This document shows, one piece after another, positions 15,537 through 54,615 of a stretch of DNA of 64,000 bases. The stretch comes from Spirochaetae bacterium HGW-Spirochaetae-1 (GTDB taxonomy: Bacteria > Spirochaetota > UBA4802 > UBA5550), in the NCBI GenBank assembly GCA_002839375.1, contig PGXY01000002.1:473037-537036 (forward strand). The letters are read 5' to 3'. Within the stretch, counting starts at the first letter, position 1; every line of letters starts with the position of its first letter. A program made the position numbers and the translations under genes. The notes under the pieces are model-generated. The model was not told where the DNA came from, made no database searches, and saw only the letters and a program-made list of their open reading frames with translations.

Positions 15537-15929
15537 ATGGTCAGGGAGCATATAGTGAGTCAAGGCTCAAATTATAATTTTTACTCATATGAGATTATTG
15601 ATGATATATTAATAATATCCATCGAACTTGAAAGACTTGATATGTACAATGTACATGATGTGCTCAATGAAACTGACCATAATTTCAAGGGTACCTCATT
15701 TTCACATGTTATAATTGAAGTTAAATCACTGAAATATGTTGATGCCACAGCCATTGGTGCTCTCATGGTGGCTATGGGAAGGATGAAAAAAAGAAAAAGA
15801 GGGGGCGATATATTTATCGTAACCGAAAGAAGCTCTCTGCTGAAGATTAAGGAACTGGTCAAGCTGGATAACCATATATTTAAAAGCAGGGAAGAAGCTT
15901 TGTTGCACATCCAAAAACTGAATTCTTAA
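15537..15929 (+). CDS. STAS-domain protein (anti-sigma-factor antagonist, SpoIIAA/RsbV-like)
   Basis: 130 aa. The sequence IIEVKSLKYVDATAIGALMVAMGRMKKRKRGGDIFIV...LKIKELVKLDNHIFKSREEAL matches the STAS fold pattern. Confidence 0.7.
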   Translation: MVREHIVSQGSNYNFYSYEIIDDILIISIELERLDMYNVHDVLNETDHNFKGTSFSHVIIEVKSLKYVDATAIGALMVAMGRMKKRKRGGDIFIVTERSSLLKIKELVKLDNHIFKSREEALLHIQKLNS

Positions 15930-15954
15930 AAAATGGATATCCAGGGAAGTAATA

Positions 15955-16422
15955 ATGAAAGTTGGATTTGTGGGAAATCAAAAAGAGATGTCAAAGCAGC
16001 AAAAAGATACTCTTATTCGTATTATGAAAAAATTAAAACATACGTATCAGAACATTGACTTCCATATGGGGAGCGCGGCGGGTTCTGACGCGGAAGCCTT
16101 TGCCATCGTTGTGGAGAACGGTCTGGTAAGCCGATTATTTTATTATCCCTCAAGTAATCCCGACGAAAATGCCTTTGATATCGAAGATCCAAGAGATCTG
16201 GAGAAGAAAGAGATAAAACTGCTGCGGCAAAAGGAGCGTACGATTTTCGAAAGAAACAGAAGCATCGTTGATACATGCGACATGATAATCGCCGTTCCCC
16301 GGGAAACATTGGAAAAAAGGGAATCTGAAACGTGGATGGCTATACGATACTCAAAAATTCAGAAGAAACGTCTTTTTACCCTCTATCCCGACGGGAAAGC
16401 AACAAAGTGGCCCACGCGATAG
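15955..16422 (+). CDS. small Rossmann-like protein with DprA/SLOG-like motif (GSAAGSDAEAFAIV)
   Basis: 155 aa. The motif resembles the GxARGIDxxAH region of DprA/SMF and LOG-like (SLOG) nucleotide-binding domains. The assignment is tentative. Confidence 0.4.
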   Translation: MKVGFVGNQKEMSKQQKDTLIRIMKKLKHTYQNIDFHMGSAAGSDAEAFAIVVENGLVSRLFYYPSSNPDENAFDIEDPRDLEKKEIKLLRQKERTIFERNRSIVDTCDMIIAVPRETLEKRESETWMAIRYSKIQKKRLFTLYPDGKATKWPTR

Positions 16423-16452: not shown

Positions 16453-17673
16453 TTATTTCTGACCGGAGATTTCCTCGAGTACCGTTTTTACATCACGGGC
16501 AATTTTCAGCTCTTCATTGGTTGGAACGACCAGAACAGTAACACGTGAATCAGCGGAGCTGATTATGCGTATGCCTTTACCGGTATCATTGTTTCTGTCA
16601 TTATCAATATGTATCCCCAGTTCTTCCAGGTTTTCGCAGGCCAGTTTCCGGATCAAGGGTACATTTTCGCCAATTCCTGCCGTAAATATCATAACATCAA
16701 GTCGTCCCAGGGCAGCATAATAGGCCCCGATGTATTTTTTGATCTGATACGTAAGCATTTCCACAGCGAGCCTCGATTTCTCGCACCCCTGTTCCATGTT
16801 TTGCAGAATTTCCCGCATGTCATTTTTTCCACAGATGCCGTAAAGGCCGCTTTTTTTATTCAGCATGGTGTCAATTCTTTCTATGGTGCAGCTGTTATTC
16901 TCGGCGAGAAAAAACGGAACGGCAGGGTCAAGATCTCCGCATCGGGTCCCCATCATTAGACCGGCCAGAGGGGTAAGGCCCATGGTTGTATCAACACATA
17001 TTCCCTGTTTTATGGCAGCCATACTGCTGCCGTTGCCGAGATGGATGGTGATCATGTTGAGCGTTTTTCGGTCCTTGCCGAGATGATCGGCTGCTTCCTG
17101 TGAAACAAAACCGTGTGATGTGCCGTGAAAACCGTATTTACGTATTCTGAAATTTTCATACATTTCAAATGGTATTGCGTACATGTATGAATATGGCTTC
17201 ATAGTCTGGTGAAAGGCCGTATCAAAAACGGCAATATGCTTTGCACCGGAAAATACCATCCTGGCAACTTCGATGCCGGTGAGATTGGCCGGATTATGGA
17301 GAGGGGCAAGGGGAATATTTTTTTTAATAGCGGCGATAATATCATCAGTTATTAATGCAGGGTTATGAAAATCTTCGCCGCCATGGACGACCCGGTGTCC
17401 CACCGCCTCAATTTCATCGCTGGTTTTTACAGAACCGTATTTTGAGTCGGTAAGCAAAGCTGCAATTCTGTTCAGACCGGTCCTGTGATCCGGTACCGGT
17501 TCTGTTTGCGTGAAACTATCGGTTGAGCCGTTTTTATAAACTTTATGATGTATGCTGCTGCCTTCCTGTCCGATCCTCTCTACCAGGCCTTCGGCAAGGA
17601 CTTGAATACCTTTCATGTCGAAGAGTCTATACTTTATTGAAGAGCTTCCGGTGTTTATGACGAGTACTTTCAT
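16453..17673 (-). CDS. ackA: acetate kinase
   Basis: 406 aa. N-terminal MKVLVINTGSSSIKYRLFDM plus ASKHA fold motifs. Confidence 0.9.
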   Translation of the reverse strand: MKVLVINTGSSSIKYRLFDMKGIQVLAEGLVERIGQEGSSIHHKVYKNGSTDSFTQTEPVPDHRTGLNRIAALLTDSKYGSVKTSDEIEAVGHRVVHGGEDFHNPALITDDIIAAIKKNIPLAPLHNPANLTGIEVARMVFSGAKHIAVFDTAFHQTMKPYSYMYAIPFEMYENFRIRKYGFHGTSHGFVSQEAADHLGKDRKTLNMITIHLGNGSSMAAIKQGICVDTTMGLTPLAGLMMGTRCGDLDPAVPFFLAENNSCTIERIDTMLNKKSGLYGICGKNDMREILQNMEQGCEKSRLAVEMLTYQIKKYIGAYYAALGRLDVMIFTAGIGENVPLIRKLACENLEELGIHIDNDRNNDTGKGIRIISSADSRVTVLVVPTNEELKIARDVKTVLEEISGQK

Positions 17674-17681
17674 AGCCTCTC

Positions 17682-19769
17682 CTATTTACCGGCCTGGATA
17701 GCCGTAATGATCACGGTGTTGATAATATCCGGTACTGTACAGCCCCTGCTCAGATCATTTACCGGTTTGTTGAGACCCTGCAGTATAGGACCGATTGCAA
17801 TAGCCCCGGTTTCGCGCTGGACTGCTTTATATGTATTGTTACCCGTATTAAGATCGGGAAATATAAAAACGGTGGCCTGTCCGGCTACTTCTGAATCGGG
17901 CATTTTAGTCGCGGCAACTGTTCTGGATACAGCCGCGTCATACTGTATGGGGCCTTCCATTTTCAGATCAGGGCGTATTTTTTTAGCCAGCACCGTAGCC
18001 TCGCGAACCCTGTCGACATCTTCACCGGTACCGCTGGTGCCTGTTGAGTATGACAGGAGGGCGACCCTGGGTTCAATACCGAAGATCATACCGGTTTCCG
18101 CTGAAGAAACGGCTATATGGGCAAGTTCCTCTGCACTGGGATTGGGGTTTACGGCACAGTCTCCATATACAAGAACCCTGTCTTCGAGGCACATGAGAAA
18201 GACGGAAGAAACAACGGGAACACCTGTTTTTGTTTTTATTATCTGAAGGGCTGGACGTATGGTGGATGCCGTAGAATGAACTGCACCGGAGACCATACCA
18301 TCGGCGTCTCCCAAATGGACCATCATCGTGCCGAAGTAACTTACATCATTCATGGCCGTCACTGCTGCATCCATGGTGAGTCCCTTGTTTTTCCGCAGAT
18401 TATGATAGGTGAGTGCGTAATGTTCCGTAAGTTCCGATGTCTGGGGGTCAATAATTCTCACGTTTTTCATGTCCAGACCCAGTTCTCTTATGCGGGATGA
18501 TATTTTATTTTCATCGCCTAGCAGAGTCAGTGTTACAATATCACGTGCTATGAGTGATTCAGCCGCCATAAGTACCCGATCTTCATTTCCTTCGGGCAGA
18601 ACAATGTGCATCCTTTTTTCCTTGGCTTTCTGGATGAGTCCATACTCGAACATCTTGGGAGTTATGATTTTCGTCGTTGCTTCGATGATTCGTCTGGAGA
18701 GCTCTTCTGAATCAATGTGAGTATCGAAAAGACTGAGGGCGGTCTGGATTTTATGGCTGTTTTCCGGAAGAATATCAGGTTTAAGATTCTCCATGAGAGA
18801 GGCTGTCCTGGTTATGGTCTCCGTCACTACGAGGATGGGAATTTTGAAAGGAAGCCCCTGAATGAGCTGAAGCACCATGTTGTCAATGACGAATTCAACG
18901 GTGAGGATTATGCCCGCCAATTCCGGGAAGTTTACCGATTGATTTACCATCATTGCTCCCAGAATGATGTCAACACGATCACCGGTTGTAATAATTATAG
19001 TCCCGTCTGAAAGGCCCCAGAGGTAATTTTCCAGGTGCATGCCGCCAATGGAGAATCTGTTAACGGGGCGGTTTAGCTGTTCTTCCCCGAAAAGAACAGT
19101 GGCTTTTAGATGTCTGACTATTTCGGCGATTGTGGGTGTATTGATTATGGAGCTTTCAGGCATAACCGCGATAAACTGTTCACTCAGATCGGTCTGTTCC
19201 CTGAGAATTTGACTGTACTGATCACAGCGGTCTTCATGAACGCGCGTAACAATGGTTCCGATTATTCTGCATCGCCTGGCACTGAAGGTTTCCTTAGCTA
19301 TTTTAATAGATTGAAGAATATTGTAAATTTCTTTTCTGTGGGCCGGGGTTATCAGAATAATTGGGCTGGCCAGGACTGAAGCGATGCGTGCATTTAAATC
19401 CATCTCGAAGGAGGAAGTCTCTTCTTTGAAATCAGTGCCATCGCAGAGTACAAAGTCATATCGTTCTTCCAGCTGTTTGTACTTGCGTACTATCCCCTCT
19501 AGGAATTCATCATATCTGCCGGCGGTGACGAGCTTTTCAGCTTCATCAAAGGTAAAAGCAAACATCTGTTCATCGGCAATATCAAGGCTGAAATAATTTT
19601 TTATGAGGGCGAAGTGTTCATGAGGTTTTTGTGAACCTGATATATGGACGATTGGGCGAAAATAGGCAACTTTATCAATTTTTCTCAACAGCAATTCCAT
19701 CAACCCAAGAGTTATTGCCTTTTTCCCGCTTTCCCCTTCCGTTGTTGTAAGATAGAGGTTTTTTGCCAT
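17682..19769 (-). CDS. pta: phosphate acetyltransferase (long form with N-terminal DRTGG/BioD-like domain)
   Basis: 695 aa. The N-terminal is the BioD-like regulatory domain and the C-terminal is the PTA_PTB catalytic domain. It sits immediately upstream of ackA on the same strand. Confidence 0.9.
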   Translation of the reverse strand: MAKNLYLTTTEGESGKKAITLGLMELLLRKIDKVAYFRPIVHISGSQKPHEHFALIKNYFSLDIADEQMFAFTFDEAEKLVTAGRYDEFLEGIVRKYKQLEERYDFVLCDGTDFKEETSSFEMDLNARIASVLASPIILITPAHRKEIYNILQSIKIAKETFSARRCRIIGTIVTRVHEDRCDQYSQILREQTDLSEQFIAVMPESSIINTPTIAEIVRHLKATVLFGEEQLNRPVNRFSIGGMHLENYLWGLSDGTIIITTGDRVDIILGAMMVNQSVNFPELAGIILTVEFVIDNMVLQLIQGLPFKIPILVVTETITRTASLMENLKPDILPENSHKIQTALSLFDTHIDSEELSRRIIEATTKIITPKMFEYGLIQKAKEKRMHIVLPEGNEDRVLMAAESLIARDIVTLTLLGDENKISSRIRELGLDMKNVRIIDPQTSELTEHYALTYHNLRKNKGLTMDAAVTAMNDVSYFGTMMVHLGDADGMVSGAVHSTASTIRPALQIIKTKTGVPVVSSVFLMCLEDRVLVYGDCAVNPNPSAEELAHIAVSSAETGMIFGIEPRVALLSYSTGTSGTGEDVDRVREATVLAKKIRPDLKMEGPIQYDAAVSRTVAATKMPDSEVAGQATVFIFPDLNTGNNTYKAVQRETGAIAIGPILQGLNKPVNDLSRGCTVPDIINTVIITAIQAGK

Positions 19770-19874: not shown

Positions 19875-20204
19875 ATGTATGGGATTTTCCCTCATGCCGA
19901 ATTAATGTACTTTACTCATTGCAGATATTGGGATAAATGGGGGAAAGTTTTAGTTCTCTGTATATTGTTCTGTAATTATTGGGATACATACATCATGGAA
20001 AAAATCTCCAAATTGATTCAGCTGGGTTTATTGTATTTTTTGAGAGTAATGAGGAAGGTTTTTGTAGTCATGATCATGGTCATCCTCTCATTTCTCTTAC
20101 TGTATAGCATCAAAACAGTCATGGGGATTAATCTTTTTGAGGACCTTTCCATTGTTGATTTTCTGGAATTTTTCCTTTCACTTTTTCAGGATCTGTTGCA
20201 ATGA
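19875..20204 (+). CDS. possible small hydrophobic protein translationally coupled (ATGA overlap) to downstream gene
   Basis: Hydrophobic ORF whose stop overlaps the ATG of the 20201 gene. There is no clear RBS and confidence is low. Confidence 0.25.
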   Translation: MYGIFPHAELMYFTHCRYWDKWGKVLVLCILFCNYWDTYIMEKISKLIQLGLLYFLRVMRKVFVVMIMVILSFLLLYSIKTVMGINLFEDLSIVDFLEFFLSLFQDLLQ

Positions 20205-21199
20205 CAAACATATCTGATAAAATTGGATTATCACTGACCAGGTACGTGATTCTGATCGTGATCCTGCTCATTGGTTCTATTAAACAGTCAAGTGCCCAGC
20301 TATACATGTGGACTTTCCAACTCGATAAGGCCGGACGGCAGGAGGCCTCCATCGAACTGGATCCATACTATAGCTGTGCTTATTATACAGTGGGGCTTAC
20401 CGATACTCCCATACCGAAAGAACAAATCAATTACGAATCAGAGCTGTACTGGCATATGATAAAAAATTTTTATCTTCCCCGGTTCGTACTTATTGAAGCA
20501 AGCGTATACCCCCTGCCCATTACCGGTGTCATGCTTAAAAAACATTCGCGGGATTTTTATGATGACAGCGAGCTTATCAAAGGTGTAAATTTTATCAAAG
20601 CGGTTACAGAGGGATTTCCCGAGCCATGGGCAACATCCCTGCTTATTGGAAATGTGGCAAACTTTGTCAAGGGGGAAGACAACGATATCGTAGGAAAAGG
20701 TTTTTCAGGTTTGCTGCTTAGCTTTGGGAATCAGCACATTGTCGACAACATCATGGTTGACGACTACTGGCTCGAAACGGAATTGAAACTGAAGGGCACA
20801 GATTTACGGGAAATACATTCTCTTAGTTACAGCTACGGTATAGGTGTAAAAAAGCATTTCAATGAGGAAATTCGTGATCAACTTTATATTTCTATAAAGC
20901 GCAATAGGATAGATTATCGGAAGGGAAATATGAATCCTTTCCTCGGATTCTTTGTCCGGAACACGGAACAGCAATTGCGTATGGATTTTGATCTGGAAAG
21001 GTTTTACAAAGGAAAAATATCAAAGCTGCTTGTACTTTTGGGTAAAAACTTCCCCATCGGTGATGGTTCTGTAACTCTTTCCTTCAGTGCCGGTTTTCTG
21101 AAAATATTCGGTGACAGTTACACCGGTACATTGAAACAGGAAGTGGGTCAGGAATGGATATTTTTGGTTCGACCAAATATTCATTTAAAATTTGATTGA
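20201..21199 (+). CDS. hypothetical secreted / outer-membrane-associated protein
   Basis: 332 aa. N-terminal signal/TM (YVILIVILLIGSIKQSSAQ). The beta-rich, aromatic-rich composition is compatible with a beta-barrel. Confidence 0.5.
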   Translation: MTNISDKIGLSLTRYVILIVILLIGSIKQSSAQLYMWTFQLDKAGRQEASIELDPYYSCAYYTVGLTDTPIPKEQINYESELYWHMIKNFYLPRFVLIEASVYPLPITGVMLKKHSRDFYDDSELIKGVNFIKAVTEGFPEPWATSLLIGNVANFVKGEDNDIVGKGFSGLLLSFGNQHIVDNIMVDDYWLETELKLKGTDLREIHSLSYSYGIGVKKHFNEEIRDQLYISIKRNRIDYRKGNMNPFLGFFVRNTEQQLRMDFDLERFYKGKISKLLVLLGKNFPIGDGSVTLSFSAGFLKIFGDSYTGTLKQEVGQEWIFLVRPNIHLKFD

Positions 21200-21361
21200 T
21201 TTTTTTTACCTTTATTCATCATATACATTTAAACTGAAATAAAGTCTGAATTTTCCAAGCACGACCGGGCGGAAATAACTGATGTATTTTAATATGAAGA
21301 AAGAAAATTATTTTGTTTGATTATTATAATTGTATCAGGTATTATAAAAAAGAAAAATATA

Positions 21362-21727
21362 ATGGATGTTGAAATTAAAAATTTAGAAAAGCTTATGATC
21401 GTTTACCTGAAAGGTAGGATGGATCTTGTTAAATCCAACGATTTGGAAAGAAGTCTTTTTAAACTTATCAATGAAGAAAAAGGAAAACACCTTCTTTTAA
21501 ATTTTGAAGATGTGGATTATCTTCACAGTTCCGGTGTCCGGATGCTCATTTCTCTGCACATCCGGCTGGAGGAACATGGGGCAATGCTCATGCTTTGCTG
21601 CATAAATCAGGCAGTGAAAAAAATTCTGGAATTTGTCGATATTATGGATATGATAAAAATTTTTAACAGTGAAGAGGAAGCCATCACTGCGTTTCCTGCA
21701 AGCGATGCTGGAGGATATCATGGATGA
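21362..21727 (+). CDS. STAS-domain anti-sigma-factor antagonist (RsbV/SpoIIAA-like), first of tandem pair
   Basis: The ATG at 21362 gives MDVEIKNLEKLMIVYLKGRMDLVKSN...DVDYLHSSGVRMLISL, a typical STAS fold. Confidence 0.75.
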   Translation: MDVEIKNLEKLMIVYLKGRMDLVKSNDLERSLFKLINEEKGKHLLLNFEDVDYLHSSGVRMLISLHIRLEEHGAMLMLCCINQAVKKILEFVDIMDMIKIFNSEEEAITAFPASDAGGYHG

Positions 21728-22061
21728 TACTATTAAGATAAAAAAAACCAAGGGTGTAATAATTATCTATCTTTCAGGGAGACTGGATCTGAATTCCTCG
21801 CATTTTATCGAGATGGGGATAAAGGACATATTAAAAGATGATAAAAGCAGCCACATATTGCTGAACCTTGCAAATGTTGATTTTATCGTTAGCTCCACCC
21901 TCCATATGTTCATGACGATAAAAAATGAATTAAAGAAAATGAATAAGAACCTCATGCTCTGCAATATAAATGAACAGGTTGAAAATGTATTAAAAGTAGT
22001 TGATTTGATAAATACCTTTGAAATTTACTCAACAGAAGAGGAAGCACTGGCGGTGATATAA
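21720..22061 (+). CDS. STAS-domain anti-sigma-factor antagonist, second of tandem pair
   Basis: The ATG at 21720 is preceded by GGAGG with a 5-nt spacer and overlaps the upstream stop (ATGGATGA). The protein reads MDDTIKIKKTKGVIIIYLSGRLDLNSS...VDFIVSSTLHMFMTI. Confidence 0.75.
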   Translation: MDDTIKIKKTKGVIIIYLSGRLDLNSSHFIEMGIKDILKDDKSSHILLNLANVDFIVSSTLHMFMTIKNELKKMNKNLMLCNINEQVENVLKVVDLINTFEIYSTEEEALAVI

Positions 22062-22109
22062 AAGGGATTTAATCGTTAAATATTTGGGGGGTCTTGCTTA
22101 ACTGTGATA

Positions 22110-22319
22110 TCATTCTATTATCTCAAAATGACCTGACTGAATAACAAGATATTTTTCAATAGTATAATTTTCCAGCCAGCCCAGCGCAATAAGAATCTGT
22201 CCTATTTTTTTACCCCTGTATTCCGTATTGGTTTTCTGAAAGTCAAGTGCAATAGTCACCTGTTCTCTGGTGAGCCTGTAGTCTTCTACAAGCAGTTCTC
22301 CTAATCTTCTCTTTTCCAT
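22110..22319 (-). CDS. standalone MshEN-like (T2SS-E N-terminal-type) domain protein, putative c-di-GMP-binding
   Basis: 69 aa. MEKRRLGELLVEDYRLTREQVTIALDFQ...GKKIGQILIALGWLENYTIEKYL matches the bipartite RLGxxLxxxGxxxxxQLxxAL...LGxxL MshEN motif pair. Confidence 0.5.
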   Translation of the reverse strand: MEKRRLGELLVEDYRLTREQVTIALDFQKTNTEYRGKKIGQILIALGWLENYTIEKYLVIQSGHFEIIE

Positions 22320-22643
22320 GTTTCTACCAGTCTGAAGGTTGATGAATATATTTTTTATTCCAATATAACAAATATATTCTATTTGTCAAGAATAAACCGT
22401 CCAGCCGGTAATATTTGCGGTATTTTCATATTACCTAACTCAATTATTTGGAAAAAAACTTTATTTCTTTCATATCCGTTGGGCTAACATCGGGAGGTGA
22501 TGAAGCGGCAGCCTCTTCCATGAGCAAGGAAATGGCAAAGGGGGCTATATGGATGGCTCTCTGGTAAATAGGGGAATCCTCAAGGGACAAGCTGCACATA
22601 CTCCGGACGTCTATTTGTGGGGGAGAAAAAGAATCTGATTTAT

Positions 22644-22672
22644 TTAGAAAAAGACTGCCCGTGAGGGCAGTC
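22644..22672 (-). terminator. rho-independent terminator: gactgccc-GTGA-gggcagtc followed by T-run on minus strand
   Basis: Perfect 8-bp GC-rich stem with a GNRA-like tetraloop, followed by TTTTTCT on the minus strand. It lies about 50 nt past the stop of the 22723-23058 gene. Confidence 0.55.
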
Positions 22673-22722
22673 GTGATGAAGTGTGTGAGATTAAATAGCT
22701 ACTGGCATAATTTAAAAGCCAA

Positions 22723-23058
22723 TCAGGCATGCGCCAATTCACGCTGCAGGGGGAACACCTCGGAAAGCTGGTAATTGGCATCACCCGGCATAAGATGAGC
22801 AGGATCATCACTGTCGTGAAGATAGGTGATTTCCAGTAAAGAACCGCGACATAAAAGTTCAAAAATATATGTTTTTACCGCTGTCGTGTTGATGGCTCGG
22901 ATGTGATATTTGAAATAGTCACGTTTTGGTGAAGCCAGATGACAATCAAAGCAAATATCGTTGCAACTGGCGTTATTCTGTTCCAGCCATTGTGAGATAA
23001 ATTCGCATGCCCGTTTTTGCGACACTCTCTGTTTGAAATTAAAAACATTGATATCCAT
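22723..23058 (-). CDS. hypothetical Cys-containing protein (111 aa)
   Basis: The ORF is followed by a clean terminator. It carries a CNDICFDCH motif and no recognisable family. Confidence 0.4.
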   Translation of the reverse strand: MDINVFNFKQRVSQKRACEFISQWLEQNNASCNDICFDCHLASPKRDYFKYHIRAINTTAVKTYIFELLCRGSLLEITYLHDSDDPAHLMPGDANYQLSEVFPLQRELAHA

Positions 23059-23286
23059 GATGCCCCCGTCTATATATTTTTGGGGAAAAATATGATTTTG
23101 TATATTAATTCAGTGTATACCCTAATGACACCTCATTAAGATTTGAATTAATCAGGGTAATATAATAAAATTACCAATACATGACAACTGATTAAACAAA
23201 AAAAATCATTTAATTTATAAAAAAAATCATTTTTTCCAGTGGGAACCAGGGGAGGCAAATCTAAGAACTGAAAAGCAAAGCTATTT

Positions 23287-23454
23287 TTATAGGTAATCGG
23301 TCAGTTTTTTTTGTACCTGCTCTCTGAAGAGATCTCCATGATATTTGCTTGTTTCTCTCAGAATATCATCAAGGGAAACACCCAGGCTGGTTGCTTCATG
23401 AACCATCCTGCAGTAGGATTTAATTTTATGTTGATTTGATATACGTTTTTTCAT
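23287..23454 (-). CDS. small protein (55 aa) not in ORF track
   Basis: Manual translation gives MKKRISNQHKIKSYCRMVHEATSLGVSLDDILRETSKYHGDLFREQVQKKLTDYL. A strong RBS (AAGGAG, 6-nt spacer) precedes it. It sits immediately downstream of the REC-PP2C gene on the same strand. Confidence 0.4.
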   Translation of the reverse strand: MKKRISNQHKIKSYCRMVHEATSLGVSLDDILRETSKYHGDLFREQVQKKLTDYL

Positions 23455-23549
23455 GGGAATCTCCTTAATGATCTGTTATTAAATAATCGGCATTACAAGT
23501 TCTCGGCAATAAATAACTTTTAGCGGCAAATATGAAATTCGAATATTTT

Positions 23550-25667
23550 TTATAGAGAGTTTTTCATATCAAGGGCAGTTTGGTTATCCGGGTCAATTGA
23601 AAGTATACCGTCCAGTGATTTATCGGCTTCGATGTAATTTCCATTTTCGATATAAATTTTTGCAAGATGCAGCAAATATCTTATGTTCTGGGGCAGCCGC
23701 AGGCAGACTCTTTCAGCCAGTTCACGGGCCTTTTCCAGGTTCCCCTTTGCTCTGAAACAAAAAGAAGCGGCAAACATAAGTGATGTGTCATGGGGGCGGA
23801 TATCGATATATGCGTCGCAGTATTCAGCAGCGGCTTCGTATAATTTATTATTGATCATATATCGTATAAGATTCCGAAGCAGTACTGGATTCCCCGGATA
23901 TATTTTAACGGCATCAAGCAGGACTGAGATGATATCATCTATGCTGTGTGTTTTTTCCATGTCACGTACAGCAGTTATAATGTCGCTGATTTCGTTTGTT
24001 TTATAGTTAATGGCTGGATGGAAAGAACTGATTTTGAGAAGAGACAGATCGTCTGTCAGTCTTCCCCGGGAAAGGATGGCATCAAAAATTCTTTTAAGTT
24101 CCCCGTCTCCTTCCTCGACCAAATTAAGAAACAGGTTGGAGTCTTCATTCAGCATCGGTGCGGCGGAAGCAGCATTTAACAGAATATCATCACGTCCGTC
24201 AGAGCCCATGATAATGATGTCCCCGGGTTTCATCTGCCATGTGTGGACTTGCAGTATCATGCCGGGTTCAACAACTCCCAGCTTCCAGAGCTGATGCCTG
24301 TTCTCGATAAAAGAGGCCCTGCCATCGCGATAAATAACCGTTCGTGGATGTTCAGCATTGATAAAATATACCAACCCGGTTTCATCATCGATCAATCCGA
24401 AGATGATGGAAACAAGCATGGAGCCGTCAAAGCTTTCAAATACATGCTGCAGTTCGCTATAGGTGCTTTTTATCCAGTGCTCAGGCGGCAGATTCTGTTC
24501 AATGGAGGAAAAACGAGTTCTGTTAATTATTGATTGAAATACAGCGCCAAGAACGAGCGCTCCTCCGGCACCCTGAATTGATTTTCCCATAGCGTCGGCG
24601 TTGGCAAAAACTCCGTATTTTTTCCCCTTGAGGTTAATGATATGGGCGAAGCAGATATCCCCGCCAATTTCTCGCTGCCATTTGCGGAACCGGAATTCCT
24701 TTTTCTGTTTAATGAAAAAATCGATACCGGCGTTTTCCAGCATGGAATGGTTATAGTTGAAGGGTTCAAGGAGAAGGCTGGTGAGAAAATAATCGCCATC
24801 CTGCGTGGATTTCATATCCTGGATTTTTTTCAAGGTGCTGCGCAGTTCAATTTGAACTGTTTTCAGGTCAGTTATATCCTCTCCTATGCACTGATATTCG
24901 ATTATTTCATTCTGCAGGTTCGCGATGGCCTGGATAGTCCACATCTGCCAGCGTGTCTTCCCGGCAATGAGTGAAGCGTATTCGAAGGTTACGAGGGGAT
25001 TGTCTGTGTTCAGCATTTTGATGTGGCCCGACAGCTCGTCGATTTTATTTTTGTCTATGAATTTGAACAGGCTTTCTCCCAGGATTTGCTGCCGCTCGAT
25101 CCCGAAATAAAGGCAAAGACCGTTATTTACGAAAGATATAATATTGCTTTCATCGTTGAACAGGCGCAGAATCATGATGGGAGAATTTTCTATCAGACCG
25201 CGATAACGCTTTTCGCTGAGTTCCAGTGCGATGTCTGAACGTCTTTTTTCCAGGGAAAGCTTATAGGCCTGTATGGCCGTTATTATCGAATAACCGAGGA
25301 TATCATGGGCATTGACATCGGAGAGGATATTTTTTGTAAGGTAGTCATAGGCTCCTTCCTTGATGGACCTGGCTGCAATGGTTTCATCCCCCTGGCTGGT
25401 GATGATAATTACCGGAATCAGGATACCCTTTACGGACAGCTCCTTCAATATAGCTATACCATCCACATCGGGAAGCATATAATCAAGGAGTATACAGTCA
25501 AAGTGTTCATCGGTGAGACGGGAAAAAAGGGATTCCCTTGATGAAGCGGTAGTAACCATGAAGGATTTATTTTTAGCCAGTATACGCTGGATAAGAACCT
25601 GCGTTGACTCGTCATCCTCGATGAGCAGGATTTTTATTTTGTTTTCTGTATCGTTTCTGTTCAGCAT
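23550..25667 (-). CDS. response-regulator PP2C phosphatase: REC - PAS - PP2C/SpoIIE phosphatase - TPR repeats (RsbU/RsbP-like)
   Basis: 705 aa. It opens with the receiver KILLIEDDESTQVLI...CILLDYMLPDVDGIAILKEL. A PAS-like segment follows, then the PP2C/SpoIIE core (GDYFLTS, GKSIQGAGGALVLGAV, FINAEHP, IIMGSDGRDD). C-terminal TPR repeats end the protein. Confidence 0.8.
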   Translation of the reverse strand: MLNRNDTENKIKILLIEDDESTQVLIQRILAKNKSFMVTTASSRESLFSRLTDEHFDCILLDYMLPDVDGIAILKELSVKGILIPVIIITSQGDETIAARSIKEGAYDYLTKNILSDVNAHDILGYSIITAIQAYKLSLEKRRSDIALELSEKRYRGLIENSPIMILRLFNDESNIISFVNNGLCLYFGIERQQILGESLFKFIDKNKIDELSGHIKMLNTDNPLVTFEYASLIAGKTRWQMWTIQAIANLQNEIIEYQCIGEDITDLKTVQIELRSTLKKIQDMKSTQDGDYFLTSLLLEPFNYNHSMLENAGIDFFIKQKKEFRFRKWQREIGGDICFAHIINLKGKKYGVFANADAMGKSIQGAGGALVLGAVFQSIINRTRFSSIEQNLPPEHWIKSTYSELQHVFESFDGSMLVSIIFGLIDDETGLVYFINAEHPRTVIYRDGRASFIENRHQLWKLGVVEPGMILQVHTWQMKPGDIIIMGSDGRDDILLNAASAAPMLNEDSNLFLNLVEEGDGELKRIFDAILSRGRLTDDLSLLKISSFHPAINYKTNEISDIITAVRDMEKTHSIDDIISVLLDAVKIYPGNPVLLRNLIRYMINNKLYEAAAEYCDAYIDIRPHDTSLMFAASFCFRAKGNLEKARELAERVCLRLPQNIRYLLHLAKIYIENGNYIEADKSLDGILSIDPDNQTALDMKNSL

Positions 25668-25820
25668 GGCAATTTAGTATGTTGGTGCGTCTCACTTCTA
25701 TTATCGCACTCTTGTGTAGTAAATGCAATAAAAGAAAATTCAATACTATGAAATAAAATGCGTGGACAAACCGTCCGGTAATTTGTCGAGGCGGATTACG
25801 GTGCATGATCTTTCTGGGGG

Positions 25821-25850
25821 TTGACATAGCAGACTTTTTCAGGTTATACT
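25821..25850 (+). promoter_or_regulatory. near-consensus sigma70 promoter TTGACA-N17-TTATAC(T) for DHH-CBS gene
   Basis: TTGACA at 25821-25826 and TTATAC at 25844-25849. The predicted TSS is about 10 nt before the ATG at 25868, giving a very short or leaderless 5' UTR. Confidence 0.45.
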
Positions 25851-25867
25851 TTGTTGCGGTATATATT

Positions 25868-27169
25868 ATGGGAATAAAAATTATCATCGGACATACTAAT
25901 ATGGATCTGGATTGTATCGGTTCCATCGTATTGGCAAGATATCTCTTTCCCGGCCACCTCCCGATAAAAAGCCGATTCATTCACCCCATGGCGAAAGGTA
26001 TATATAATCTTTATGAAAATCAGCTTAATTTCCTTACCATGGAGGATATCAAGAATGAAACCCCTGAGCGCATAGTCATTGTCGATACACGAGATATGGA
26101 CAGGGTTAAAGAGGTGCTTGACTGCTATCCTGATTTTAAGGGAGAAATTGAAATATATGATCATCACCGGGGGCACAACAGTGATTTCCCCGAGGCTCTT
26201 GTTCACGAGGGTGATAGCGGTTCAAATACATCTCTTCTGGCCATGGAAATCATGAATCGCAGTATAAAGATATCTCCTGACGACGCAACAGTAGCCCTGG
26301 CCGGAATTTATGCCGATACCGGAAATTTTACCCATTCCAATATTCAGGCTATCGATTTTAAGGCCGCCTCCTTTCTTGTGGAAAGCGGAGCATCGACTAA
26401 AATTCTGAGTACTTTTATGAAAGCTCTCAAGGAAGACCATCAACTGGAACTTTTTCACGGCATAGTGAACCAGATGGTTTATCAGGAGATAAACGGGAAT
26501 TTTATAATATTCAGCTATATGGCCATGGAAAAACAGGCGGGCGGACTTGCTGCCGTGGTGGAAAAACTCTTTGAAATAGAGAATCCCGATGCAGTCTTTG
26601 CCATATTCGCCTTTAAAAAGGACGGCAGTGTTCTTATTATCGCCCGCAGTCAGAAGTCGGATATTGATCTGGATGCTATTCTCGGTCATTTTGGCGGGGG
26701 GGGGCATGCACAGGCCGCTTCAGCCTTGCTCAAACACAGCCAGGGCAGGGATGTGCTTGAGACTTTATTGCGGCATCTGAAAACCAGCCTAATACCGGCC
26801 CTTACCGCCGACGAGGTCATGACAAAAAACGTATACTGCATCTCGGCAGGCTGGACTCTCAAAGAAGCGTCAATTTTCCTTGAGAACGCTGATCACGGCG
26901 GAGCTCCCGTCATTGATGAAGATAGCAGAATTGTTGGAATGCTTACATTGCGCGATATTATGAAAGGCAGGAAGACGGGACAGATCAATGCACCGGTGAA
27001 GGCGTACATGAAAAAAAAGATCATATCATGCTCCAGGACCACTACGTTGCGTGAAATTGAGCACATGCTTTATGAAAATAATATTGGACATCTCCCTGTC
27101 CTGGATGGAGAGCTGGTGGCTGGTATTATCACCCGTTCCGATATCCTCCGCTTTGCCGAGAAGCTGTAA
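25868..27169 (+). CDS. DHH-DHHA1 phosphoesterase with tandem C-terminal CBS domains
   Basis: The ATG at 25868 gives MGIKIIIGHTNMDLDCIGSIV, a DHH motif I. DTGNF and GGGGHAQAAS mark the DHHA1 domain. Two CBS motifs follow (VIDEDSRIVGMLTLRDIMKG and LPVLDGELVAGIITRSDIL). Confidence 0.75.
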   Translation: MGIKIIIGHTNMDLDCIGSIVLARYLFPGHLPIKSRFIHPMAKGIYNLYENQLNFLTMEDIKNETPERIVIVDTRDMDRVKEVLDCYPDFKGEIEIYDHHRGHNSDFPEALVHEGDSGSNTSLLAMEIMNRSIKISPDDATVALAGIYADTGNFTHSNIQAIDFKAASFLVESGASTKILSTFMKALKEDHQLELFHGIVNQMVYQEINGNFIIFSYMAMEKQAGGLAAVVEKLFEIENPDAVFAIFAFKKDGSVLIIARSQKSDIDLDAILGHFGGGGHAQAASALLKHSQGRDVLETLLRHLKTSLIPALTADEVMTKNVYCISAGWTLKEASIFLENADHGGAPVIDEDSRIVGMLTLRDIMKGRKTGQINAPVKAYMKKKIISCSRTTTLREIEHMLYENNIGHLPVLDGELVAGIITRSDILRFAEKL

Positions 27170-28673: not shown

Positions 28674-31634
28674 TTACAGACCGAATTCGGTCCTCTCTAT
28701 CAATTCCATCTGCATTTCCCGGTTAAGCGTTACAAAATATGCGTTATATCCTGAAATGCGAACCAGGAGATTCTGATATTTTTCAGGATTGGCCATGGCG
28801 TCTCTCAGCGTGTCGGAATTAATTACGTTGAACTGCATCTGCATGCCTCCCAGGTCAAAATATGTCCGGACATAGGAGTGCATGGCATTGACGATTTCTT
28901 CACGCGTGTCACGAACGTCGGGAGACAGCTTTACGTTGAAGGCGATATTATTATCCATGCTTCCCGGAATCAGCTGCGCCACGTCATGTATATTATCCAG
29001 AAAATTTTTCGACGCTCCGGGCTGCGGGGTAAGACCCGGTGTAAAAGCCCTGCCGTCGAGACGTCCCGATGGCAGAGTTCCTGAAAGTGTTCCGTATGCC
29101 ACATGCTGAGACATGGACCAGAATCCGGCCGTATAGGGCCCGCCGCGGAAATTGGTGTGTGTACTCCAGGCTTCATGTATGAAGGATGCTATCCGCTGCG
29201 CCATCTCCATGGCTTCCCGGTCTCCTGACCCGAAGAGGGGAACTTTTCGCCGTACAATACTCATGAGGGCTGGATTGCGGGAAAAATCCGAATCTATGGC
29301 TTTCTTCAGTTCCCGGAAAGAAACAGCCTTTTCATCATATATGAGTTTTTTTATTACCATCATGGAATCAGTCACATCGGCAAGTCCGATATTGGATGTA
29401 CCTGAAGAATTATACCGTGCACCTCCCCGGGTAACATCGATACCGTTTTCGATTGCACCGTCAATGAGTGAGCTGAGAAAAGGGGTGGGCCTGAGTACTG
29501 CATGGGCCTGCGCCAGGAGATTATTCAACATGACTGACTGGTCTATGAGAAACCGTTGTTGCTCCGTAAAGGCTCGAAAAAAATCTTCGAAATCAGGAAA
29601 TTGGTCCTTTTCAATGTCCCCCGTTTCAGGTCCAAACTGCTGATTCATGTGGGGATGTCTGCCGTTATTGAGGGCCATTTCCAGTGCCGATACCATGTTC
29701 ATGAGTATGGATCCCGTGTGTCCCATGTGTCGGCCCGAAAGTGTGGGTTCAACGCAGCCCGTGGCCGACCAGTCATGAATATGCCGCTCTTCGTAACCCT
29801 TGTCCGCAAGTGACAGAAAAACGGCGCTGTCATTATGCATGGACGGCGTGGCGGCAGTGGTATAATTAACTTCACAGAGACGTTTCAGATAGGTATCACT
29901 GTTTGTGCCGGGATGAAACCGGGCATTTATATTGGGATCCCGGATGGAAAGCATCTCCGTGGCTTTCAGGAAAATATATGTCATATCATTGACACCATCG
30001 TCTCCACCGGGAGTTATTCCTCCCAGCGTGACGGCCTGATCGGAAGAACTGCCGCCGAAGAGATAGTTGCCGATATCGGGCACCGTGGGAAGATGATCGG
30101 TGCCGCGCATAAGAAGACATCCCGTCAGTTCAATGGCTTTTTTTATATACGATTGTCTTTTTTCCCCTGATGAAATTTCCTGCATATCATTGATGAAATA
30201 AGGATTGAGCCATTGATCGAGGCGTCCCATGGAAAGCCCCGTGTTAGTGTTCTCCATATGCAGGGCAATCCAGACAATCCAGATCACCTGGAAGGCCTCA
30301 TGAAGCGTAGCGGCAGGATTGCGCGGCACCCTGTCACAGATATCGGCTATCTCCACCAGTTCATCACGTCGTGACGTGTCATCTTCCAGGGCAGCTCTGC
30401 GGCGCGCTTCACCGGCCAGATTAGAAGCATATATATTGAGGCCTTCAAGCGTGATTTTCATGGCTGTTAGACTGTTTATTTTGTCCATGTCCGTTTTTCT
30501 GTCCAGAGAACCCAGGCGTTCATCGATTTCCTTGATGATTCCTGTTGTGCCTCTGCCAAGAATGGATGGATAGTCCGGGATGGTGTGGGATATTCCCACG
30601 GATTTCCACACGAAATAATACACCCACCGTTCTTCGATTTTCATACACAGGGGATAATCGTTATTACTTCGAACATATTCCTTGAAGTTACGATGTATCC
30701 AGAAGGGAAAAATATCCCGGTGAAGCGTGAGGGCATCTTCAGGTGATATGCTGTAGGGATTGAGAGTGCGGTGTTCAAGGGAGTTCAGCTCGCCCCATAA
30801 CATGCCGGCATGGGCGTCGGGATAAAGAAGGACGCCTGCCGGTTCTTTCGACGTGGTGGTCCCGGCCAGGATTGATCCTTCCGCTATGACGGGTTTTTTT
30901 TTATCCATGAGGTGCTTGAAGGCCATGGCCTGCCGAAGCACCGGGATCCAGCAATGTTCTTCCTTATCGGTTTCAAATCCATGTTCCCTGAACCATTCTG
31001 TCAGGAGCCTGGGGCGTTCAATGCAAACGACGGGTTTAGCGGTGAAATGTTTTTCCAGCATTCTTTCAAGTCGGGGGAAATCAGCAAGGGTGTATTCACC
31101 CAGGTAGGGATCGTTCAGGTATTTTACGTTACGGTCTATTGAACCGGCCTTCAGGGGATTCCGGCTCCTTTCTTTCATTCTTGAACTGTAATCAGTATTG
31201 GCATGGCCTTTTAGTTGTTTTTTATCTTTGATATATTTTTTATTTTTAACAGTGAGCATTTTGCCATGGACTTTCCCCAGCAGAAGAGAAACGTAATAAT
31301 TGAAAAGTTGCAGGTATGCAATATTGCCGTCGAGAATCATTTTATTATTCAATATCAGGCTGAGCATTTCATTGGGAGTTATAAGAAGCATTTCCCATAA
31401 TGTTTTATTAGTGCTGAACCGGAGAATAACCTCGGCAGCTTCAGGAGTGGTTTTATGAACAAAAACCCGGCCTCCTTTGAACGATATTGCCCTGTCCACG
31501 CTGCCCGTTTCAGTTTTAAAACCGATAGTGAAATTATACCATCCTTCACAGTGTTGAAGATAGGTATTAAATCGCTTGTTTTTATTAAAAACGAAGGCCA
31601 TAGTATACAGTAATAGAAATATTATCATGTTCAT
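28674..31634 (-). CDS. glycyl-radical enzyme, PFL2/dehydratase (single-Cys GCVEP) clade, with about 180-aa N-terminal extension
   Basis: The C-terminal glycyl-radical motif is LVRISGYNAYFVTL and the active-site loop is WSATGCVEPTLSG. The canonical GRE N-terminus begins about residue 185 (FPRLERMLEKH...). The extension opens with a hydrophobic helix, MNMIIFLLLYTMAFVF. There is an RBS (GGAG, 10-nt spacer) before the first ATG. Confidence 0.8.
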   Translation of the reverse strand: MNMIIFLLLYTMAFVFNKNKRFNTYLQHCEGWYNFTIGFKTETGSVDRAISFKGGRVFVHKTTPEAAEVILRFSTNKTLWEMLLITPNEMLSLILNNKMILDGNIAYLQLFNYYVSLLLGKVHGKMLTVKNKKYIKDKKQLKGHANTDYSSRMKERSRNPLKAGSIDRNVKYLNDPYLGEYTLADFPRLERMLEKHFTAKPVVCIERPRLLTEWFREHGFETDKEEHCWIPVLRQAMAFKHLMDKKKPVIAEGSILAGTTTSKEPAGVLLYPDAHAGMLWGELNSLEHRTLNPYSISPEDALTLHRDIFPFWIHRNFKEYVRSNNDYPLCMKIEERWVYYFVWKSVGISHTIPDYPSILGRGTTGIIKEIDERLGSLDRKTDMDKINSLTAMKITLEGLNIYASNLAGEARRRAALEDDTSRRDELVEIADICDRVPRNPAATLHEAFQVIWIVWIALHMENTNTGLSMGRLDQWLNPYFINDMQEISSGEKRQSYIKKAIELTGCLLMRGTDHLPTVPDIGNYLFGGSSSDQAVTLGGITPGGDDGVNDMTYIFLKATEMLSIRDPNINARFHPGTNSDTYLKRLCEVNYTTAATPSMHNDSAVFLSLADKGYEERHIHDWSATGCVEPTLSGRHMGHTGSILMNMVSALEMALNNGRHPHMNQQFGPETGDIEKDQFPDFEDFFRAFTEQQRFLIDQSVMLNNLLAQAHAVLRPTPFLSSLIDGAIENGIDVTRGGARYNSSGTSNIGLADVTDSMMVIKKLIYDEKAVSFRELKKAIDSDFSRNPALMSIVRRKVPLFGSGDREAMEMAQRIASFIHEAWSTHTNFRGGPYTAGFWSMSQHVAYGTLSGTLPSGRLDGRAFTPGLTPQPGASKNFLDNIHDVAQLIPGSMDNNIAFNVKLSPDVRDTREEIVNAMHSYVRTYFDLGGMQMQFNVINSDTLRDAMANPEKYQNLLVRISGYNAYFVTLNREMQMELIERTEFGL

Positions 31635-52839: not shown

Positions 52840-54615
52840 ATGAGTAAAAATGATCTGGTACTGGAAAATATCGAAGAAGTTAAAAAGCTGATTGAGATCG
52901 GCAAGATAAACCATGAAATAACTTATGATGAGATCAATGATATCCTTCCCGACAAGCTTCTCAATTCAGACAAGATTGATGATATTTTCATATTACTGAA
53001 TCAGCTCGGAATTGAAGTCGTTGAGGAAAGCACGCGCAAGGCGGCGAACGCGCCGGTTATTCCTCTCCCAGCGAAAAAGAAAGCAGCCTCGAAAAAAGCC
53101 TCGGCAATGTCAGATGATGCCTCCCACGTAGATGATCCTATACGTCTCTATCTAAAAGAGATCGGCAAGGTATCGCTTCTTTCGGGAGATCAGGAAGTGG
53201 ATCTGGCAAAAAGAATTGAGGACGGTGAAATCCTCATCGAGAAGGCCGTTATCAATTCAACACTGCTGGTGAATGAGCTTATAAAGAATCACTCCAAGGT
53301 GAAGAGCGGCAAGATAAAACTTACCGAGGTAATGCGAGTCAACCGGCTTTACTATTTCTCCTCCATTGATATGAAAGATCTGGAAAACCGTTATACTGAA
53401 AAGATGAAGATCATCATCGAAGAGGATAATAAAATCCTGAAGATGACGAGTAAACTCAAGAAAGTTGATGAAGACTCGAAGGATGCCCTTGAGTTGAACA
53501 AAAAAATCGATGATTCGCGTATACGGATCAGGGAATCTGTTTCAGATCTCGGTATTAATGAGGGCGAAATAACGAAGATGTCCTCCAAGATACAATCCAT
53601 GGTTTCCAGGATCAATGATACCTACTACTTCTTCAAACTCATTGAGGACAAATACAATAAGGACATAAAGGAATTAAAGCATTTCGCCCGCAAGGTGGAA
53701 AAAGGGGAAGATATTACAAAGATAATAAAGGAATCCAATATTCCCAATGAAGAAGAATTGCTGGAAATTGTCAAGGATGTCCGCAACAATGAACGCAAGA
53801 TCAGAAGGATAGAGCAGGAAGCCGGAGCCTCGGCCGATGATATTATGGAGTGGGGAAAGCAGATCGCCCACGGCCAGAGAAAAATATCAATTGCGAAAAA
53901 GGAACTGATAAACGCGAATCTCCGTCTCGTAGTCTCGATCGCAAAAAAATATGCCAACCGGGGAATGCATTTTTTCGACCTCATACAGGAAGGCAATATC
54001 GGTCTAATCAAGGCCGTTGATAAATTCGAATACCGGAAGGGCTATAAATTTTCCACATACGCAACCTGGTGGATCAGGCAGGCAATCACGCGAGCCATTT
54101 CCGATCAGGCCAGAACGATTCGGGTTCCCGTACACATGATCGAGCAGATCAACAAGGTCATGAGAGAAACCCGTTTGTTCCAGCAGGAATTTGGCCGGGA
54201 ACCCAATCCCGAGGAACTTGCCGATCGCCTGGGATGGCCCGTAGCGAAAGTAAAGGCCGTAAAAAATGTTGCCAGGGAGCCTATTTCCCTTGAAACACCC
54301 GTAGGCGAAGAGGAGGATTCTCTTCTGGGCGATTTTATCGAGGATAAAGAGGTCGATTCTCCTGTTAATACAGCGGCATATCGTCTCCTTCATGAACAGA
54401 TATCATCGGTCCTCAATACACTGCCGGCCAGGGAGCAGAAGGTAATACGAATGAGATTTGGACTTGATGACGGCTATTCCCACACCCTTGAGGAAGTTGG
54501 ATATGTTTTTAAAGTAACCAGGGAACGGATTCGTCAGATCGAGGCTAAGGCGCTCCGCAGACTGCGACATCCCACCAGGGCAAGAAAACTGAAAGACTAT
54601 CTGGATTATATGTAA
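52840..54615 (+). CDS. rpoD: RNA polymerase primary sigma factor (sigma-70)
   Basis: Region 2 [14 protein letters not shown], region 4 [26 protein letters not shown], and an acidic/lysine-rich region 1. It follows dnaG as in the conserved macromolecular-synthesis operon. Confidence 0.9.

Follow-up and report, generated by a model that had tools for sequence, protein, structure and literature searches.

Does a gene for a miniature relative of known cyclic di-GMP (c-di-GMP) receptors, lying between the genes for two anti-sigma-factor antagonists and the gene for a response-regulator phosphatase, mark a partner switch under second-messenger control, or does it simply neighbor one? The question is raised by a locus of Spirochaetae bacterium HGW-Spirochaetae-1, contained in a stretch of 64,000 nucleotides (nt) of contig PGXY01000002.1 (assembly GCA_002839375.1, positions 473,037 to 537,036). 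This stretch is termed the window below; all coordinates are positions within it, and statements about the window cover its full length. The original prediction described two STAS-domain proteins encoded opposite a 705-amino-acid (aa) protein with receiver (REC), PAS, SpoIIE/PP2C phosphatase and TPR domains, with a 69-aa standalone protein resembling the receptor domain MshEN between them, and saw in this set a module linking c-di-GMP to a phosphorylation-controlled partner switch. Our analysis favors, with moderate confidence, a more ordinary explanation: the locus would combine the input half of a dispersed partner switch with a separately transcribed protein that consists of MshEN's N-terminal subdomain (MshEN_N) and probably acts independently of the switch.

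All six predicted open reading frames (ORFs), namely those for the two antagonists (STAS1 and STAS2) and for the 69-aa, 111-aa, 55-aa and 705-aa proteins, are present in the window (Table 1). Comparison with a 90%-identical metagenomic relative indicates that they are real genes, because the ratio of nonsynonymous to synonymous substitution rates (dN/dS) is well below 1 in each, a mark of purifying selection. The constraint is strongest on the 69-aa gene (0.03) and the STAS genes (0.04-0.05), followed by the phosphatase gene (0.09) and the 55-aa and 111-aa ORFs (0.16 and 0.17, respectively).

Examination of the 705-aa protein with Pfam recovered a Response_reg domain (E-value 1.3e-21, residues 13-114), a PAS region (residues 154-267, within which PAS_9 matches 171-267 at 3.4e-8), a SpoIIE domain (PF07228; 3.2e-24, 86.4 bits, residues 353-546) and C-terminal TPR repeats (TPR_19/TPR_14, residues 593-702). 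The PP2C metal-site motifs GGD, DAMGKS, SDGRDD and DD are invariant in an alignment of 11 orthologues (GGD337, D358, D490/D493 and D539/D540), and D62 and K112 of the receiver are nearly so. Given this conservation of both catalytic and receiver residues, the protein should be an active phosphatase controlled by phosphorylation. The protein is 100% identical to a hypothetical protein recorded for Spirochaetae bacterium HGW-Spirochaetae-1. No HATPase_c domain was detected at its C-terminus, which is occupied by the TPR repeats, and it thereby departs from the HsbR/CrsR-type architecture (REC-PP2C-GHKL). Two orthologues of this phosphatase, at L023 (10454-12879) and L024 (10577-12895), carry an extra C-terminal hemerythrin domain and reach 839-842 aa. 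Directly 3' of the L024 gene lies a gene for a 7TMR-DISM/PAS/HisKA_2 histidine kinase, which is likely the cognate kinase for the receiver domain, and a large kinase-like ORF lies 3' of the gene at L023; no gene like the L024 kinase is found in the window.

The two antagonists are equally well supported. Both match the Pfam STAS model far above its cutoff of 22.6 bits (STAS1, E-value 2.8e-20, 72.5 bits; STAS2, 1.2e-18, 67.2 bits) and also the TIGR00377 model for anti-sigma factor antagonists (68.6 and 64.2 bits, cutoff 53.45), so that Pfam and NCBIfam together bear out the domain calls made for the STAS pair, as Pfam does for the phosphatase. They align without gaps to SpoIIAA (1auz), were also aligned to 1th8, and retain the phosphorylatable serine: HSSG of STAS1 and VSST of STAS2 correspond column for column to DSSG of SpoIIAA, which contains Ser58. 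The proposed translational coupling is likewise confirmed, as the reading frames overlap in ATGGATGA; within the junction sequence GGAGGATATCATGGATGA at 21709-21727 the ATG of STAS2 overlaps the stop codon of STAS1, and a GGAGGA Shine-Dalgarno sequence 5' of this ATG forms a good ribosome-binding site. The predicted 5' end of the locus, at 21317, is a TTG that opens the mechanically defined ORF and has to be moved, the likely start of STAS1 being the ATG at 21362. Related genomes have one STAS protein here, to which STAS1 is orthologous (44-54% identity to those of L003, L017 and L021); STAS2 is restricted to the window and the relatives that are 90% identical to it, being absent from L003, L017 and L021.

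The original prediction did not list a third STAS gene (STAS3) upstream of this pair. Its product matches Pfam STAS at 3.1e-9, falls below the TIGR00377 cutoff with 32 bits and has DATA in place of DSSG, the serine thus not being conserved. It is followed after 26 nt by an ORF of 155 aa (15955-16422) on the same strand, and the pair (15537-16422, +), which is kept in L001 and L002, may be another small signaling pair. As a divergent RsbW the 155-aa protein was ruled out: it has no HATPase motifs, and its only match is a weak one to Nuc_deoxyrib_tr (nucleoside 2-deoxyribosyltransferase-like).

A canonical partner-switching operon also encodes an RsbW/SpoIIAB-type kinase. The earlier statement that the window holds no HATPase_c anti-sigma kinase was confirmed in two ways: the Pfam models HATPase_c and HATPase_c_2 had no match among essentially all non-overlapping ORFs in the window that reach 100 aa, and jackhmmer with SpoIIAB/RsbW-like seed sequences found no such kinase among the full set of window ORFs with 45 aa or more. 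The same jackhmmer search readily detected histidine kinases in other loci. No cognate alternative sigma factor gene was found in the locus or the window, the only sigma factor there being of the RpoD-type primary class (52840-54615), 31 kb away. The significance attached to the missing kinase did not hold up on comparison. Among 76 Leptospira-type PP2C-TPR loci examined with 8-kb flanks, a STAS gene lies within 8 kb in four and a small RsbW-type ORF in none. A genome scan anchored on the phosphatase returned mostly Leptospira HAMP-PP2C-TPR paralogues, with four matches of full length, and more than 575 SpoIIE matches were obtained from Spirochaetota in one scan. It is routine in this phylum for the components of partner switches to be dispersed, and the lack of a kinase gene beside the phosphatase and STAS genes is probably not remarkable. 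The phospho-serine retained by both STAS proteins leads us to expect that another part of the genome encodes a serine kinase.

We propose that a histidine kinase, none being encoded in the window, phosphorylates Asp62 in the receiver of the 705-aa protein, and that this phosphorylation, possibly together with a PAS ligand, would set the activity of the PP2C domain. The latter would dephosphorylate the conserved serines of STAS1 and STAS2, which in their unphosphorylated form could engage a target whose gene lies elsewhere, be it an anti-sigma kinase of the RsbW type or a different protein. Through its TPR tail the phosphatase may recruit a partner or substrate.

Only in part does the 69-aa protein deserve its description as MshEN-like. 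It gave no match to the Pfam MshEN model (PF05157) even at an E-value of 1; that model represents the full domain of about 110 residues, including the β-sheet subdomain MshEN_C, and the protein stops eight residues past its second motif and lacks this subdomain. What it does possess is the N-terminal four-helix half. The NCBIfam model NF053729, which covers 53 residues of c-di-GMP-binding, MshE-related sequence, matches residues 5-58 (43.3 bits, E-value 2.4e-11, cutoff 38), and phmmer searches of the PDB retrieved PilF (6f8l, 1.5e-6), MshE (5htl, 1.8e-3) and PilB (5zfr). An AlphaFold2 model built from 40 family members, with a predicted local distance difference test score (pLDDT) of 90.1, contains helices at residues 6-12, 18-30, 39-45 and 51-62, and in the four-helix bundle thus predicted lie two 24-residue motifs, R5-Q28 and K38-Q61. 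Foldseek places this model closest to 5htl_B (TM-score 0.77, root-mean-square deviation (rmsd) 1.0 Å, probability 1.00); its top nine matches are MshEN/GSPII domains throughout, and the nearest structural neighbors are the c-di-GMP-bound forms of MshE and of PilF GSPII-B (rmsd 1.0-2.1 Å).

Whether such a protein would bind the ligand can be judged from well-characterized relatives. The isolated MshEN_N of Vibrio cholerae MshE, residues 1-62, binds c-di-GMP with a dissociation constant of 0.35 uM, and hence a protein of 69 aa is of sufficient size (PMC5013675). The ligand contacts of V. cholerae MshE, namely R9, L10, G11, L25, L29, Q32, R38, L39, G40, L54, L58 and Q61 (PMC5013675), align with R5, L6, G7, V21, L25, Q28, K38, I39, G40, I54, L58 and Q61 of the 69-aa protein, so that 12 of 12 positions are identical or conservatively replaced. 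Lysine or leucine at motif position 1 is tolerated in PilF GSPII-B and even increases its affinity (PMC11731258). The published relaxed pattern, [RKPN]hGxxhhxx[GAS]hhxxxxhxxxhxx[QNKRYWST] in two copies with a 5-residue spacer (PMC5013675), is fitted completely by motif II.

Several features weigh against binding. Motif I fits the consensus at the ligand contacts and departs from it at positions 10-11, where Y14 replaces the turn glycine and R15 the next core hydrophobic residue; R15 occupies the position of the I19R change, one of those listed for the non-binding XpsE (PMC5013675). The spacer between the motifs is nine residues long, against the published five. The STAS-adjacent subfamily to which the protein belongs combines this 9-residue spacer with a conserved signature of its own, DY(R/L)LT, and the two together could mark a specialized partner interface. 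The XpsE/GspE N-domains serve as protein-interaction modules, as does that of Xanthomonas PilB, whose partner is PilZ. A similar fate, in which a degenerate MshEN_N has lost c-di-GMP binding and serves purely in protein interaction, is conceivable for the 69-aa protein. It would account for the departures in motif I and the spacer (PMC5013675) and for the lack of a Pfam MshEN match, and non-binding MshEN folds do appear among the structural neighbors (7lkm, PilB-PilZ; 9g1w, GSPII-A). Yet we regard it as unlikely, as each ligand contact is either kept or conservatively replaced, the curated NCBIfam model of the c-di-GMP motif is passed, the best structural matches are ligand-bound forms, and the deviating residues fall in the α1-α2 turn and the core, away from the contacts. 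We consider c-di-GMP binding by the 69-aa protein plausible, with chances a little better than even. If so, its pair of 24-residue motifs would most likely accommodate a single c-di-GMP, and the protein would act on some partner as a small, second-messenger-dependent adaptor in the manner of single-domain PilZ proteins.

We infer that the gene for this protein is transcribed separately from its neighbors, because it has a candidate promoter of its own, is convergent with the STAS genes and lies beyond a terminator-like structure that follows the 111-aa gene. The candidate promoter, about 40 nt 5' of the ATG, consists of TTGACA, 16 nt and a TG-extended TATATT and agrees with the consensus at 11 of 12 positions; it is a consensus match only, and promoter-like sites are no more frequent in the region than in shuffled sequence. 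The hairpin has a stem of eight pairs, six of them G-C, followed by TTTTTC, and would part the transcript of the 111-aa gene from the 69-aa gene. The latter thus appears to be monocistronic and to be co-transcribed with neither the STAS genes nor the phosphatase gene.

The stretch between the 69-aa gene and the phosphatase gene varies in gene content. A tblastn search of the window with a gene of L001 identified the remnant of a 454-aa multi-pass membrane protein, represented by residues 74-106 and 189-203; this transporter gene is intact in L021 and likewise in L001 and L002, where it is flanked by the genes for the 111-aa and 69-aa proteins, and about 1.2 kb of it has disappeared from the window genome. 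The 111-aa and 55-aa ORFs are found elsewhere only in L001 and L002 (87% and 89% identity, respectively), the former not being found in L003 or L021, and in these last two the intervening genes encode a TrpR-like protein, a transporter and a small membrane protein. Directly 5' of the MshEN_N gene and co-oriented with it, L021 (12166-12546) and L003 (10641-11000) encode a membrane protein of 119-126 aa with three to four passes, whose gene could be an operon partner of the MshEN_N gene there; the window lacks it and has the transporter remnant in its place.

A case for a functional link comes from gene neighborhood, and it is here that a dedicated sensor has to be considered. On this hypothesis the 69-aa protein monitors c-di-GMP for the switch, its loaded form binding STAS1/STAS2 or the TPR tail and shifting antagonist phosphorylation or partner choice. 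The arrangement is indeed kept in four species-level lineages of uncultured Spirochaetota: that of the window with L001, L002 and L101; that of L003, L004 and L102; L017; and L021. The 69-aa protein holds the same position in all of them, with identities of 97%, 66%, 60% and 60%, respectively, and the phosphatase gene lies within 1-3 kb of the MshEN_N/STAS pair. This conservation says little about function, since the lineages are collinear over more than 20 kb, from a HEAT-repeat gene through pta-ackA. It is also confined to that narrow clade, and a search with a narrow alignment of the small protein returned just two metagenome loci, both of lineages already known.

Certain details nonetheless weigh on the other side. 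Between the 3' ends of the MshEN_N and STAS genes lie 48 nt in the window and 3 nt in L003 and L017, and in L021 the two ends overlap by 4 nt; this tail-to-tail adjacency persists even though the phosphatases are only 46-47% identical and the intervening genes have turned over; such tight adjacency is compatible with selection for linkage. At L020, in an unrelated context, another standalone MshEN_N gene is divergent from the gene for a membrane SpoIIE phosphatase. Further in favor of a sensor are the TPR interaction domain of the phosphatase, which has no assigned partner, the subfamily's own DYRLT signature, and the precedent for crosstalk between a STAS protein and c-di-GMP in HsbA-HsbD (PMC6482189).

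Set against these points, standalone MshEN_N genes occur in five other contexts, and four of these contain neither STAS nor PP2C. Members of other subfamilies lie after glpK beside a hybrid kinase, with ACT/DUF2157 genes, or in a TPR/DegT operon. Two neighbors of MshEN_N genes that were considered as hidden PP2C proteins were ruled out, the 391-aa one at L016 being a coiled-coil protein and the 340-aa one at L018 a DUF2157-like membrane protein. Conversely, full-length orthologues of the phosphatase from other genomes (41-46% identity) adjoin no STAS or MshEN_N gene; at one orthologue outside the clade an MshEN_N gene lies 7 kb off, behind unrelated genes. Fusions of MshEN_N to STAS, SpoIIE or HATPase_c/kinase domains are absent from 113 multidomain relatives, whose partners include Hpt, C39 peptidase, glycosyltransferase, T2SSE and REC domains. 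Besides, with SpoIIE as numerous in Spirochaetota as the scan above indicates, chance adjacency is to be expected. Together with collinearity and separate transcription, these observations do not sustain the claim that MshEN, STAS and REC-PP2C form a functional module, and we give the dedicated sensor only a small chance. The position of the 69-aa gene beside the STAS genes most likely reflects synteny within one clade, not a functional module.

Apart from this locus, single-domain MshEN_N proteins of 60-85 aa apparently constitute a large, undescribed family. Exhaustive phmmer searches with the 69-aa query yielded 222 cluster representatives with E-values of at most 1e-3, several of them 61-85 aa long, and a profile search yielded 996 proteins at the same threshold. 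The best 120 of these 996 comprise 54 proteins of single-unit size (up to 95 aa) and 66 of double-unit size (96-160 aa); within these 120, an organism name is attached to five single-unit proteins, and all five come from metagenome-assembled genomes of Spirochaetota, as do most labeled members of the family. The catalogue of Wang et al. 2016 contains (MshEN_N)2 and various fusions and no single-unit architecture (PMC5013675), and our literature search found no paper describing such proteins. Pfam gives family members no label or labels them DUF4388, DUF2949 or FumaraseC_C; as these models fire on MshEN_N repeats, pipelines based on Pfam leave many MshEN_N proteins mis-annotated or unannotated. 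At the other extreme of size, P0122, which is encoded outside the window, is a protein of 4135 aa with 39 MshEN_N-like stretches (E-value 8.9e-92 to the 69-aa query).

Should c-di-GMP binding hold for the 69-aa protein and its relatives, about 1000 in number, no natural protein receptors of this messenger would be smaller, and they would stand to MshEN as stand-alone PilZ proteins stand to PilZ domains. They could then explain part of c-di-GMP signaling in uncultured Spirochaetota, a phylum in which c-di-GMP effectors are poorly known. The most far-reaching version, that the DYRLT subfamily is a dedicated c-di-GMP sensor acting on STAS proteins or the TPR tail and that 60-85-aa MshEN_N proteins are widespread c-di-GMP adaptors of Spirochaetota, strikes us as distinctly improbable; if true, it would mean that a second messenger directly controls a partner switch based on phosphorylation. 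As matters stand, a partner switch gated by c-di-GMP is reduced to a minority hypothesis, and the partner-switch part of the locus adds little, since dispersed PP2C/STAS sets of this kind abound in the phylum.

Table 1. Features of the locus and its surroundings, with positions in the window
Feature	Position	Strand	Description
STAS3, 130 aa	15537-15929	+	Divergent STAS, 5.4 kb upstream of the originally reported span
pta + ackA	16453-19769		Upstream of STAS genes
332-aa protein	20201-21199	+	N-terminal signal-peptide-like segment; directly 5' of STAS genes, same strand
STAS1, 121 aa	21362-21727	+	SpoIIAA/RsbV-type anti-sigma-factor antagonist
STAS2, 113 aa	21720-22061	+	Second SpoIIAA/RsbV-type antagonist
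69-aa standalone MshEN_N protein	22110-22319	-	Putative small c-di-GMP receptor or adaptor
Promoter candidate of 69-aa gene	22362-22389	-	Sigma-70-like consensus match
Transporter-gene remnant	22463-22605	+	Two short fragments
Intrinsic-terminator-like hairpin and T-run	22653-22672	-	3' of 111-aa gene
111-aa ORF	22723-23058	-	Lineage-specific
55-aa ORF	23287-23454	-	Lineage-specific
705-aa REC-PAS-SpoIIE/PP2C-TPR protein	23550-25667	-	Presumed phospho-STAS phosphatase
DHH-DHHA1-CBS gene	25805-27169	+	Divergent from 705-aa gene

The remaining genes of the region give few functional clues. The 332-aa protein matched no family in Pfam or NCBIfam; its gene shows a dN/dS of 0.09 against the 90%-identical relative, and its homologues in L003, L017 and L021 (58-60% identity) adjoin a STAS gene every time. 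The 111-aa ORF matched no Pfam or NCBIfam family either, and the sole match of the 55-aa ORF is a weak VapB-like one in Pfam (E-value 0.034). Scanning the window for Rfam families and tRNAs gave no match, hence no c-di-GMP riboswitch. The DHH-DHHA1 protein has two C-terminal CBS domains, and its gene is divergent from the phosphatase gene at every syntenic locus. Among enzymes of the DHH-DHHA1 type are nanoRNases and cyclic-dinucleotide phosphodiesterases, and a nucleotide-signaling role for this protein is conceivable. Farther along, a gene for a 986-aa glycyl-radical enzyme (PFL-like and Gly_radical domains; 28674-31634, minus strand) is shared by the window and the more distant L003 and L021 and missing from the 90%-identical L001 and L002, a pattern that points to recent loss or gain.

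In a wider context, the partner-switch half of the locus recalls the Bacillus modules RsbU-RsbV-RsbW-SigB and SpoIIE-SpoIIAA-SpoIIAB-SigF. Like these it pairs a SpoIIE-family PP2C phosphatase with antagonists of the RsbV/SpoIIAA type, the conserved serine being present in both; it differs from them in that the window contains no kinase/anti-sigma gene or alternative sigma gene, in the receiver and PAS input of the phosphatase, and in having two coupled antagonists. The 69-aa protein, in turn, resembles MshE (5HTL) and Thermus thermophilus PilF GSPII-B (8PDK) in its two tandem 24-residue motifs, its four-helix bundle and its conserved ligand contacts. Unlike in these, MshEN_N makes up the entire protein, with neither MshEN_C nor an ATPase attached, the motifs are nine and not five residues apart, the turn glycine of motif I is a tyrosine and the hydrophobic residue after it an arginine, and ligand binding is a prediction.

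Single-domain PilZ adaptors such as MapZ provide a conceptual parallel, in that a minimal c-di-GMP-binding domain acts by binding another protein; the concept is alike, whereas fold and binding mode are unrelated. Closer in build is the Cyanothece protein cce_1044, an (MshEN_N)2 protein (Wang et al. 2016, Supplementary Table 4), which is likewise small and composed of MshEN_N units only, with no enzymatic domain, and which has two such units in place of the single one found here. With respect to signaling logic, the HptB-HsbR-HsbA-HsbD pathway of Pseudomonas aeruginosa is close as well, for there, too, a PP2C response regulator sets how far a STAS antagonist is phosphorylated, and c-di-GMP signaling is touched by the pathway (PMC6482189). 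HsbR, however, has its own C-terminal kinase/anti-sigma domain, where the 705-aa protein has TPR repeats and no kinase, and in Pseudomonas the link to c-di-GMP lies at the output, phosphorylated HsbA binding the diguanylate cyclase HsbD, with no small receptor protein taking part (PMC6482189). In Streptomyces, a sigma/anti-sigma pair, RsiG-sigma-WhiG, is controlled by c-di-GMP (PMC13232838). With HsbA-HsbD and RsiG-sigma-WhiG known, a connection between c-di-GMP and partner switching is therefore not unprecedented as a concept, and it is only the receptor proposed here that would be new.

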